Source: Trypanosoma brucei (Eukaryota). Taken from it: a stretch of 64,000 bases of DNA. The stretch lies in the NCBI GenBank assembly GCA_000002445.1, contig CP000070.1, forward strand, positions 1,888,001 through 1,952,000. Reading direction: 5' to 3'. The notes under the pieces are model-generated. The model ran no database searches. It saw nothing but the letters and a program-made list of their open reading frames with translations, and was not told the origin of the DNA. A program made the position numbers and the translations under genes. Shown here piece by piece: positions 49,030-52,105 of this stretch (positions are counted from its first letter, which is position 1; every line of letters begins with the position of its first letter).

Positions 49030-52000
49030 TTTTATATGAAAAAGCGTGTTATTAAGTGTTTTATGTGCAAAAGAGTGTTATTAAGTGTTTTATATGAAAA
49101 AGCGTGTTATTAAGTGTATTATATGAAAAAGCGTGTTATTACGTGTTTTATGTGCGAAAGCGTGTTATTAAGTGTTTTATGTAAAAAAGCGTGTTATTAA
49201 GTGTTTTATTTTGAAAAAGCGTGTTATTACGTGTTTTATGTGCGAAAACGTGTTATTACGTGTTTTATTTTGAAAAAGCGTGTTATTAAGTGTTGTACGT
49301 GCAAAAGCGTGTTTTTAAGTGTTTTATTTTGAAAAAGCGTGTTATTACGTGTTTTATGTGCGAAAGCGTGCTTTTAAGTGTTTTATTTTGAAAAAGCGTG
49401 TTATTAAGTGTTTTATTTTGAAAAAGCGTGTTATTACGTGTTTTATGTGCGAAAGCGTGTTATTAAGTGTTTTATTTTGAAAAAGCGTGTTATTACGTGT
49501 TTTATGTGCGAAAGCGTGTTATTAAGTGTTTTATGTAAAAAAGCGTGTTATTAAGTGTTTTATTTTGAAAAAGCGTGTCATTAAGTGTTTTACGTGCAAA
49601 AGCGTGTTATTAAGTGTTTTATGTGCAAAAGCGTGTTTTTAAGTGTTTTATTTTGAAAAAGCGTGTTATTAAGTGTTTTATTTTGAAAAAGCGTGTTATT
49701 ACGTGTTTTATGTGCGAAAGCGTGTTATTAAGTGTTTTATTTTGAAAAAGCGTGTTATTAAGTGTTGTACGTGCAAAAGCGTGTTTTTAAGTGTTTTATT
49801 TTGAAAAAGCGTGTTATTAAGTGTTTTATATAAAAAAGCGTGTTATTACGTGTTTTATGTGCAAAAGCGTGTTTTTAAGTGTTTTATTTTGAAAAAGCGT
49901 GTTATTAAGTGTTTTATTTTGAAAAAGCGTGTTATTACGTGTTTTATGTGCGAAAGCGTGTTATTAAGTGTTTTATGTAAAAAAGCGTGTTATTAAGTGT
50001 TTTATGTGCGAAAGCGTGTTATTAAGTGTTTTATTTTGAAAAAGCGTGTTATTACGTGTTTTATGTGCGAAAGCGTGCTTTTAAGTGTTTTATTTTGAAA
50101 AAGCGTGTTATTAAGTGTTTTATTTTGAAAAAGCGTGTTATTACGTGTTTTATGTGCGAAAGCGTGTTATTAAGTGTTTTATTTTGAAAAAGCGTGTTAT
50201 TACGTGTTTTATGTGCGAAAGCGTGTTATTACGTGTTTTATGTGCGAAAGCGTGTTATTAAGTGTTTTATTTTGAAAAAGCGTGTTATTACGTGTTTTAT
50301 GTGCGAAAGCGTGTTATTAAGTGTTTTATTTTGAAAAAGCGTGTTATTAAGTGTTTTATTTTGAAAAAGCGTGTTATTAAGTGTTGTACGTGCAAAAGCG
50401 TGTTTTTAAGTGTTTTATTTTGAAAAAGCGTGTTATTACGTGTTTTATGTGCGAAAGCGTGTTATTAAGTGTTTTATTTTGAAAAAGCGTGTTATTAAGT
50501 GTTTTATGTGCGAAAACGTGTTATTACGTGTTTTATTTTGAAAAAGCGTGTTATTAAGTGTTTTATTTTGAAAAAGCGTGTTTTTAAGTGTTTTATTTTG
50601 AAAAAGCGTGTTATTACGTGTTTTATGTGCGAAAGCGTGTTATTAAGTGTTTTATTTTGAAAAAGCGTGTTATTACGTGTTTTATGTGCGAAAGCGTGTT
50701 ATTAAGTGTTTTATGTAAAAAAGCGTGTTATTAAGTGTTTTATTTTGAAAAAGCGTGTCATTAAGTGTTTTACGTGCAAAAGCGTGTTATTAAGTGTTTT
50801 ATTTTGAAAAAGCGTGTTATTACGTGTTTTATGTGCGAAAGCGTGTTATTAAGTGTTTTATTTTGAAAAAGCGTGTTATTAAGTGTTGTACGTGCAAAAG
50901 CGTGTTTTTAAGTGTTTTATTTTGAAAAAGCGTGTTATTAAGTGTTTTATATAAAAAAGCGTGTTATTACGTGTTTTATGTGCAAAAGCGTGTTTTTAAG
51001 TGTTTTATTTTGAAAAAGCGTGTTATTAAGTGTTTTATTTTGAAAAAGCGTGTTATTACGTGTTTTATGTGCGAAAGCGTGTTATTAAGTGTTTTATTTT
51101 GAAAAAGCGTGTTATTAAGTGTTGTACGTGCAAAAGCGTGTTTTTAAGTGTTTTATTTTGAAAAAGCGTGTTATTAAGTGTTTTATTTTGAAAAAGCGTG
51201 TTATTACGTGTTTTATGTGCGAAAGCGTGTTATTAAGTGTTTTATGTAAAAAAGCGTGTTATTAAGTGTTTTATTTTGAAAAAGCGTGTTATTAAGTGTT
51301 TTATTTTGAAAAAGCGTGTTTTTAAGTGTTTTATTTTGAAAAAGCGTGTTATTACGTGTTTTATGTGCGAAAGCGTGTTATTAAGTGTTTTATTTTGAAA
51401 AAGCGTGTTATTAAGTGTTTTATTTTGAAAAAGCGTGTTATTACGTGTTTTATGTGCGAAAGCGTGTTATTAAGTGTTTTATTTTGAAAAAGCGTGTTAT
51501 TACGTGTTTTATGTGCGAAAGCGTGTTATTAAGTGTTTTGTTTTGAAAAAGCGTGTTATTACGTGTTTTATGTGCGAAAGCGTGTTATTAAGTGTTTTAT
51601 TTTGAAAAAGCGTGTTATTAAGTGTTTTATGTGCGAAAGCGTGTTATTAAGTGTTTTATTTTGAAAAAGCGTGTTATTAAGTGTTTTATTTTGAAAAAGC
51701 GTGTTATTAAGTGTTTTATTTTGAAAAAGCGTGTTATTAAGTGTTTTATTTTGAAAAAGCGTGTTATTAAGTGTTTTATGTGCAAAAGCGTGTTTTTAAG
51801 TGTTTTATTTTGAAAAAGCGTGTTATTAAGTGTTTTATTTTGAAAAAGCGTGTTATTACGTGTTTTATGTGCGAAAGCGTGTTATTAAGTGTTTTATGTG
51901 CGAAAGCGTGTTATTAAGTGTTTTATGTGCAAAAGCGTGTTATTACGTGTTTTATGTAAAAAAGCGTGTTATTAAGTGTTTTATGTAAAAAAGCGTGTTT

Positions 52001-52105
52001 TTAAGTGTTTTATTTTGAAAAAGCGTGTTATTAAGTGTTTTATGTAAAAAAGCGTGTTATTACGTGTTTTATGTGCGAAAGCGTGTTATTACGTGTTTTA
52101 TGTGT
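49030..52105. repeat. Minisatellite: ~104 tandem copies of a 29-30 bp unit (consensus near AAAAAGCGTGTTATTAAGTGTTTTATTTTG) with several variant units arranged in higher-order patterns
   Basis: Read directly. Variants AAGTG/ACGTG and ATTTTGAAAAA/ATGTGCGAAA/ATGTAAAAAA/ACGTGCAAAA alternate. Lies ~11 kb upstream of the 18S gene, so it is an rDNA intergenic-spacer repeat. Confidence 0.95.

Follow-up and report, generated by a model that had tools for sequence, protein, structure and literature searches.

An AT-Rich Tandem Array beside rRNA Genes on Trypanosoma brucei Chromosome 7 and Its Probable Identity with the Published Centromeric Satellite

Chromosome 7 of Trypanosoma brucei carries, next to ribosomal RNA (rRNA) genes, a 3,076-bp tandem array of 104 units of 29/30 bp, located on the + strand at positions 49030-52105 of a 64,000-nt stretch of the genome assembly (GCA_000002445.1, contig CP000070.1, positions 1,888,001 to 1,952,000), hereafter the window. 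With a probability of roughly 0.93, this array is the published centromeric AT-rich satellite of chromosome 7, the platform on which the KKT kinetochore proteins assemble. The element has been known since 2007 (Obado et al., 2007; PMC1868937) and is not a new control element of rRNA genes. An initial annotation, made from the letters of the window, had described it as a spacer minisatellite of ribosomal DNA (rDNA) and a candidate RNA polymerase I (Pol I) terminator, enhancer, or replication-fork barrier, a role left unsupported by the position of the array, the occurrence of one array per chromosome, and the published centromere assignment. Locus identity, array anatomy, and conservation in a second subspecies were observed in the present analysis; topoisomerase II (Topo II) cleavage, binding of KKT2 and KKT3, R-loops, early replication, and the true size of the array come from the experiments of others.

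Identity of the Locus and Published Centromere Data

The window belongs to chromosome 7 of TREU927, a strain of T. b. brucei, and not to T. cruzi; its proteins were compared by exact sequence match. Four open reading frames (ORFs) in the window are exact TREU927 chromosome 7 proteins. The ORF at 189-1202 is identical to AAZ12743, and that at 28651-30966, a 771-aa trans-sialidase, is identical to AAZ12746. The gene flanking the array on the left is ESAG5-like and annotated as "expression site-associated gene (ESAG) protein, putative" (41788-43230, + strand); it matches AAZ12747.1 exactly and is 99% identical to its T. b. gambiense orthologue. On the right, in the rDNA spacer, lies the ORF of hypothetical protein Tb927.7.6870 (54255-54773, - strand), an exact match to AAZ12748.1 with copies, members of the same cluster, on other rDNA-bearing chromosomes. 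AAZ12747.1 is taken here to be Tb927.7.6860, a locus number inferred from the consecutive accessions (AAZ12748 being Tb927.7.6870) and from Table 1 of Obado et al. On TREU927 chromosome 7, the array accordingly has Tb927.7.6860 on its left and Tb927.7.6870 on its right.

Etoposide-induced Topo II cleavage maps to one region per megabase chromosome, and these regions lie between directional gene clusters and contain ingi/DIRE elements together with an AT-rich repeat array (Obado et al., 2007; PMC1868937). For chromosome 7, Table 1 of that study lists an array of 3.0 kb, with 29-bp units and an AT content of 75%, between Tb927.7.6860 and Tb927.7.6870, situated within the Topo II cleavage region and beside rRNA genes and retroelements (PMC1868937). 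The array was later placed at 1936979..1940105 of the reference, a length of 3.1 kb (Echeverry et al., 2012; PMC3292466), and the centromere of chromosome 7 has been described as 59-bp tandem repeats from which no siRNAs arise (Tschudi et al., 2012; PMC3447711). Since every anatomical descriptor in these papers fits the measured array, the two are regarded as the same element. The features in common are the flanking genes, an AT-rich unit of ~29 bp forming a 59-bp dimer, a length of ~3.0-3.1 kb, a lone array, and a position conserved in T. b. gambiense. The expected context is also present in the window, namely ingi/RIME-type 5′ ends, a reverse-transcriptase remnant, and rRNA genes (sr2 and 18S).

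Chromatin immunoprecipitation sequencing (ChIP-seq) has located peaks of KKT2 and KKT3 at the AT-rich arrays on chromosomes 1, 2, and 4-8 (Akiyoshi and Gull, 2014; PMC3978658), and a 2026 eLife study again found KKT2 at centromeres 1, 2, 3, 6, and 7, on their divergent repeats (PMC12975129). R-loops have been detected on the centromeric AT-rich repeats by DNA-RNA immunoprecipitation sequencing (DRIP-seq), and replication mapping has identified the centromeres as the earliest or most efficiently used origins. The sequence contains nothing that contradicts a centromeric identity.

Anatomy and Composition of the Array

Tandem Repeats Finder (TRF), the program proposed in the initial annotation for checking unit structure, reports a single tandem array at 49030-52101/52104 with a period of 59 (52.1 copies) or 89, 89% matches, and 1% indels, and this is the only sizeable tandem array within the window. 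The 21-nt core GCGTGTTATTAAGTGTTTTAT has 104 matches at ≤3 mismatches, all on the + strand and all inside 49044-52101, against a chance expectation of 0. Splitting on this core yields 53 units of 29 bp, 50 units of 30 bp, and one terminal junction unit (n = 104). TRF, the core search, and unit splitting together bear out the predicted ~104 tandem units of 29/30 bp over 3.1 kb. The core itself had been called invariant, which it is not, as the exact form GCGTGTTATTA(A/C)GTGTTTTAT is present in 78 of the 104 units. The predicted four tails are indeed the main ones (TTTGAAAAA, n = 50; GTGCGAAA, n = 28; GTGCAAAA, n = 13; GTAAAAAA, n = 8), to which two minor tails with two units each must be added.

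Seventeen distinct unit sequences make up the array, 57 units belonging to type A (GCGTGTTATTAAGTGTTTTATTTTGAAAAA, 33 copies) or type B (GCGTGTTATTACGTGTTTTATGTGCGAAA, 24 copies). Alternation of A and B dominates among neighboring units, AB occurring 16 times and BA 12 times, in agreement with the alternating variant blocks described earlier, and the longer run of one type expected near 51620-51780 corresponds to A-type units at 51639-51788. Higher-order organization is likewise confirmed: the best self-match lag is 59 bp, a dimer of 30 + 29 bp (identity 0.74 vs 0.64 at lag 29), and a block of ten unit types, ABAECKLCAB, is found again 38 units away. A self-match at lag 177 is equal to 3 × 59, and the TBR1 primer, used to look for the 177-bp minichromosome repeat, has no match in the array.

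On the + strand, the array consists of 44% T, 27% A, 23% G, and 6% C (A+T 71%), with a GC skew of about +0.56 to +0.61. Hairpin or cruciform potential was considered as a basis for Topo II or terminator action and rejected, since four 118-nt stretches of the array, taken from both strands and from two variant contexts, show no more stable folding than their dinucleotide-shuffled versions (z = +0.6 to +2.3).

Long-range restriction mapping gives the real chromosome 7 array a size of ~100 and 120 kb on the two homologues (PMC3292466), and nanopore assemblies of strain Lister 427 yield complete centromere lengths of 30-105 kb. The 3.1 kb of the reference is a collapsed stand-in for ~100-120 kb; therefore, the copy number, block order, and junctions given above describe a collapsed consensus. 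The initial annotation had named expansion of the array by the assembler as the scenario that would overturn its reading, and the opposite holds, the reference having been collapsed to 3.1 kb. Its proposal of an origin by unequal crossover stands insofar as the variant blocks are of the kind that unequal exchange yields.

Conservation and Turnover in T. b. gambiense

The corresponding chromosome 7 locus of T. b. gambiense DAL972 (FN554970.1, here L002) was reached through the orthologue of Tb927.7.6870, and a second locus (L001) was drawn from FN554974.1. L002 is colinear with window positions 63629-52084 at 96.9% identity. Past an assembly gap, it continues into the same 29/30-bp family (TRF periods 29, 59, and 88) next to the same rDNA tail; this array spans at least 7 kb, a lower bound on its length since it is broken by a second gap and runs off the end of the locus. 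The arrays of TREU927 and DAL972 are 86-90% identical, compared with 97% for the flanks, and three exact unit types are common to both (17 types in TREU927, 38 in DAL972). Such rapid concerted turnover is as expected for a centromeric satellite.

On its rDNA side, the DAL972 array is bounded by ~130 bp of unique sequence (L002 13124-13251), a GC-rich stretch followed by T-rich tracts, for which no match was found in the TREU927 window. The two sides of the window also fall on separate DAL972 records. The block left of the centromere (31857-47367), with a trans-sialidase and the ESAG5-like gene, is on the 4.53-Mb record FN554974.1, and the 2.22-Mb chromosome 7 record FN554970.1 holds the side with the rDNA and the array, together with the genes from the start of the window. 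Colinearity with L001 stops at 47367, inside an ingi/RIME 5′ end. This split could be a translocation or a scaffolding choice.

Contribution of the Repeat DNA to Centromere Function

If the array is the centromere of chromosome 7, its 29/30-bp units, effectively 59-bp dimers, would mark the site at which the unconventional kinetoplastid kinetochore of KKT proteins assembles. Topo II would decatenate the sister chromatids at the array, and the centromere would fire among the earliest or most efficient origins. The array would grow, shrink, and homogenize by unequal exchange, which would in turn give rise to the variant blocks and to the subspecies-specific unit types. That the repeat DNA itself, and not only its chromatin or neighbors, recruits the kinetochore is inferred.

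Several caveats apply to this interpretation. To our knowledge, no sequence-specific binder of the 29/30-bp unit has been described. The AT content measured here (71%) differs from the published 75%, and the length (3,076 bp) differs from the 3.0-3.1 kb in the literature (the coordinates in PMC3292466 give 3,127 bp); both discrepancies are small and probably due to differences in where the array was delimited or in the assembly version used. On chromosome 3, KKT signal is found next to the repeats and not over them (PMC3978658), and repeat DNA may for this reason not be strictly required.

The chromosome 3 signal, which is a KKT2 peak, also speaks for a passenger satellite, one that arises neutrally through recombination in a strand-switch region poor in genes and rich in retroelements, where the centromere is set by chromatin or neighboring sequences and the repeat is dispensable. 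Such an explanation would accommodate the fast turnover of unit types between subspecies, the difference in centromeric repeats from chromosome to chromosome (29-30, 120, and 147 bp; PMC1868937), the T. cruzi centromeres that have no repeats at all (PMC1868937), and the units' lack of intrinsic secondary-structure potential in the folding comparison. It is nevertheless rather unlikely, as enrichment of KKT2 and KKT3 coincides with the arrays on seven of the eight mapped chromosomes, including chromosome 7 (PMC3978658), and arrays of tens of kilobases are found at every mapped megabase-chromosome centromere (chromosomes 1-8, PMC3292466; strain 427 nanopore assemblies).

Position Relative to rRNA Genes

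The rRNA sequence adjoining the array belongs to a truncated rDNA unit. The first gene of this remnant is that of the small rRNA sr2 (52106-52290, + strand), which comprises domain VI of the large subunit (LSU) rRNA with the sarcin-ricin loop and is matched by the Rfam families LSU_rRNA_eukarya and LSU_rRNA_bacteria; positions 3007-3161 of LSU_rRNA_eukarya match 52132-52287 (100.9 bits, E = 1.7e-24). The array is joined directly to the 5′ side of sr2, with ~8 nt of internal transcribed spacer 5 (ITS5) left between them. Further downstream, an exact match to the published ITS7 probe target (52850-52879, + strand; PMC9841430) serves as a marker of the remnant. Rfam matched sr2 alone, and the putative sr6 (~52560-52700, before ITS7) and sr4 (~53020-53140, after ITS7) were placed by means of the ITS7 probe and have limits set from position only. 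No 18S, 5.8S, LSU-alpha, or LSU-beta is present upstream of sr2 in the window, and sr2-sr6-sr4 is a promoter-less, truncated rDNA tail. A complete rDNA unit begins further to the right, with a Pol I promoter fragment at 61794-62083 (+ strand; primers RpF with one mismatch and RpR with none, PMC2691778) and the 5′ part of the 18S rRNA gene at 63181-64000 (+ strand; SSU_rRNA_eukarya, 450.7 bits), which runs off the window. This is the sole Pol I promoter in the window and lies ~9.7 kb downstream of the array.

These positions bear on the proposal that the array is a regulatory repeat of the rDNA intergenic spacer, whose units would serve as binding sites for Pol I terminator or enhancer factors or as a replication-fork barrier that protects the rRNA unit. 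The adjacency to rRNA sequence on the matching strand is real, and the strand asymmetry of the array (6% C on the + strand) would fit a polar element, as would the R-loops at centromeric AT-rich repeats be compatible with such a role. Spacer repeats in Leishmania (60-64 bp) and T. cruzi (172 bp) have also been reported to influence Pol I transcription (PMC6562600). However, the array lies 5′ of sr2 in a remnant that has no promoter, 18S, 5.8S, LSU-alpha, LSU-beta, or ITS5, and because of this truncation it follows no transcription unit. The nearest Pol I promoter is 9.7 kb away, and upstream of the array are the protein-coding gene Tb927.7.6860 and a RIME/ingi 5′ end. Each chromosome has one array site despite the two rRNA units on chromosome 2 and the five on chromosome 3 (PMC1868937; PMC2691778), and on chromosomes 4 and 5 the centromeric regions are likewise marked by related arrays (PMC1868937). 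When an A-B-A unit trimer was compared with the rest of the window in a local-alignment scan, no top match fell in the promoter at 61794-62083. A spacer function is thus already largely refuted by position and must be considered very improbable, and the spacer location proposed in the initial annotation survives only in that the array adjoins rDNA, as it is not flanked on both sides by rDNA transcription units.

On chromosomes 1, 2, 3, 6, and 7, the centromeric strand-switch regions contain rRNA genes and ingi/DIRE retroelements as well. Since rRNA genes are a feature of all five of these regions, the adjacency observed on chromosome 7 is chromosome context and no sign of a role in Pol I transcription.

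The Junction between Array and sr2

The array ends within the region 52081-52112, where its last unit follows the B-type sequence exactly as far as ATGTG and goes on as TTTGTGAG, the last bases of ITS5 leading into sr2. The genuine 3′ end of ITS5 is GCTGTTATACACACGTGTATATGTGTTT (PMC9841430) and was not found at the array-sr2 junction. In DAL972, the corresponding place is occupied by the 3′ end of LSU-beta, followed by ITS5 and then sr2 (L002 12470-12560). The 3′ end of ITS5 and the repeat unit are alike at ~20 of 29 aligned positions, and ATGTG is common to both at the crossover point. The fusion of array and sr2 arose either by homeologous or microhomology-mediated recombination in vivo or by a deletion during cloning or assembly.

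The junction also offers an argument for an assembly artefact, with the array as an expansion or chimera made by the assembler. It falls in the 5-nt microhomology ATGTG, within the longer imperfect similarity to the ITS5 3′ end, and in T. b. gambiense ITS5 and the LSU-beta 3′ end are retained at this position, so that a deletion in cloning or assembly could account for the exact right-hand junction. The length of the reference is, in addition, known to be wrong at this locus (PMC3292466). For the array as a whole, an artefact is extremely unlikely and has already been refuted. The family is present at the matching position in the separate DAL972 assembly, and therefore the array is not assembler-made; Southern mapping shows more repeat DNA than was assembled (PMC3292466), and ChIP-seq, DRIP-seq, and small-RNA reads map to the array.

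In a local-alignment scan, the ITS5 3′ end is the top non-array match in L002 (score 18), and similar scores of 17-19 are also reached by ITS6 and by the spacer at 55906. An origin of the satellite from ITS5 is not claimed here in view of these comparable scores. The similarity between ITS5 and the unit is suggestive at most and may only explain the site of recombination. A more far-reaching proposal would be that the 29/30-bp satellite of chromosomes 2 and 7 arose by amplification of the ITS5 3′ end of a truncated rDNA unit, and that the rDNA remnant, or R-loop-prone transcription of the G/T-rich strand, helps to specify a CENP-A-independent centromere. It is prompted by the ~20 of 29 shared positions, the best non-array match in L002, and the fusion to sr2 at exactly this point, and appears distinctly doubtful. 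If true, an ITS5 origin would explain why five T. brucei centromeres lie beside rRNA genes, which was left unexplained by the original authors.

Neighboring Features of the Window

Two facing retroposon arms bracket the array and the rDNA remnant. The first is the 5′ end of a non-LTR (long terminal repeat) retroposon at 47125-47387 (+ strand), identified by direct reading of the sequence and an inverted repeat, which we take to be of the ingi/RIME type from its conserved 5′ signature and 2A motif; the 2A-like peptide LLSGDVEENPGP is encoded at 47352-47387. The second, identified from the inverted repeat and BLAST, is an inverted ingi/RIME-type 5′ end at 57595-57787 (- strand) that faces the first. 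The pair 47125-47317 / 57595-57787 is 193 nt long and 93% complementary, with 10,277 nt between its arms. A degenerate reverse-transcriptase ORF, a remnant of DIRE/ingi type, lies at 59224-59691 (- strand), with a Pfam RVT_1 match (E = 8.7e-6, 26 bits) under the 29.6-bit cut-off; among eight flanking ORFs, Pfam gave nothing beyond this sub-threshold match. The ~1.6 kb from the retroposon end to the array (47450-49030) contains no Pfam-recognizable ORF, has no counterpart in L001, and ends in an A/C-rich tract right before the first repeat.

Near the start of the window, a perfect inverted repeat (1776-4295 / 4640-7159) has arms of 2,520 bp that are 100% complementary and separated by a 344-nt spacer, both arms carrying tRNA-Ala(AGC), tRNA-Ser(GCT), and tRNA-Asp(GTC). 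Long inverted repeats have been reported as sources of siRNAs in T. brucei (PMC3447711). The trans-sialidase gene is duplicated, with the full 771-aa copy at 28651-30966 and a truncated 427-aa copy at 7981-9264, near-identical to the full one over the first ~390 residues; the TREU927 annotation includes both. Upstream of the ESAG5-like gene, a (GT)20 microsatellite (41057-41096) corresponds to (GT)94 in T. b. gambiense (L001 9117-9304).

Relation to Other Tandem Repeats and Significance

The array belongs to the chromosome 2/7 class of T. brucei AT-rich arrays, which have units of ~29-30 bp (Obado et al., 2007; Echeverry et al., 2012); it is the identical element, with no essential difference, and the chromosome 2 and 7 arrays are 83% identical (PMC1868937). 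To the published description of the chromosome 7 array, the present analysis adds a catalogue of unit variants, the ~1.1-kb block duplications, the 59-bp dimer, the precise point of fusion to sr2, and a comparison with T. b. gambiense.

The CIR147 satellite of chromosomes 4, 5, and 8, to which repeats on chromosomes 9-11 are related, is also a KKT-bound centromeric array but differs in unit and sequence, and it yields siRNAs, whereas the chromosome 7 array yields none (PMC3447711). The CIR147 target site of transcription activator-like effectors, TTGACGTGAAAATAC, was not found in the array at ≤3 mismatches, and lags of 147 and 148 are not dominant periods there. A relationship of the array to CIR147 was rejected because this site is missing and no 147/148-bp period stands out.

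The spacer repeats of Leishmania (60-64 bp) and T. cruzi (172 bp) are likewise tandem repeats near rRNA genes, but they separate the 3′ end of each unit from the promoter of the following one and are reported to affect Pol I transcription (PMC6562600). The chromosome 7 array is instead found 5′ of a truncated unit, with a single such array per chromosome, and published work places kinetochore proteins on it. Its closest parallels outside the trypanosomatids are with alpha-satellite-type DNA of humans and other eukaryotes, with which it shares AT-rich tandem monomers, higher-order blocks, homogenization by unequal exchange, fast evolution between relatives, Topo II cleavage sites, and under-representation in assemblies. 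The monomers differ in size, 29/30 bp on chromosome 7 vs 171 bp in alpha-satellite, and unlike alpha-satellite centromeres, those of kinetoplastids have no CENP-A and a kinetochore built of unrelated KKT proteins (PMC3978658).

No discovery is involved, as the element was described in 2007 and has been characterized repeatedly since. A trypanosome tandem array found beside rRNA genes should be checked for a centromere before it is called a Pol I spacer element. Of some interest is the reason that the centromeres of five T. brucei chromosomes border on rDNA, together with the question of whether the similarity between the array and ITS5 at the junction means anything.

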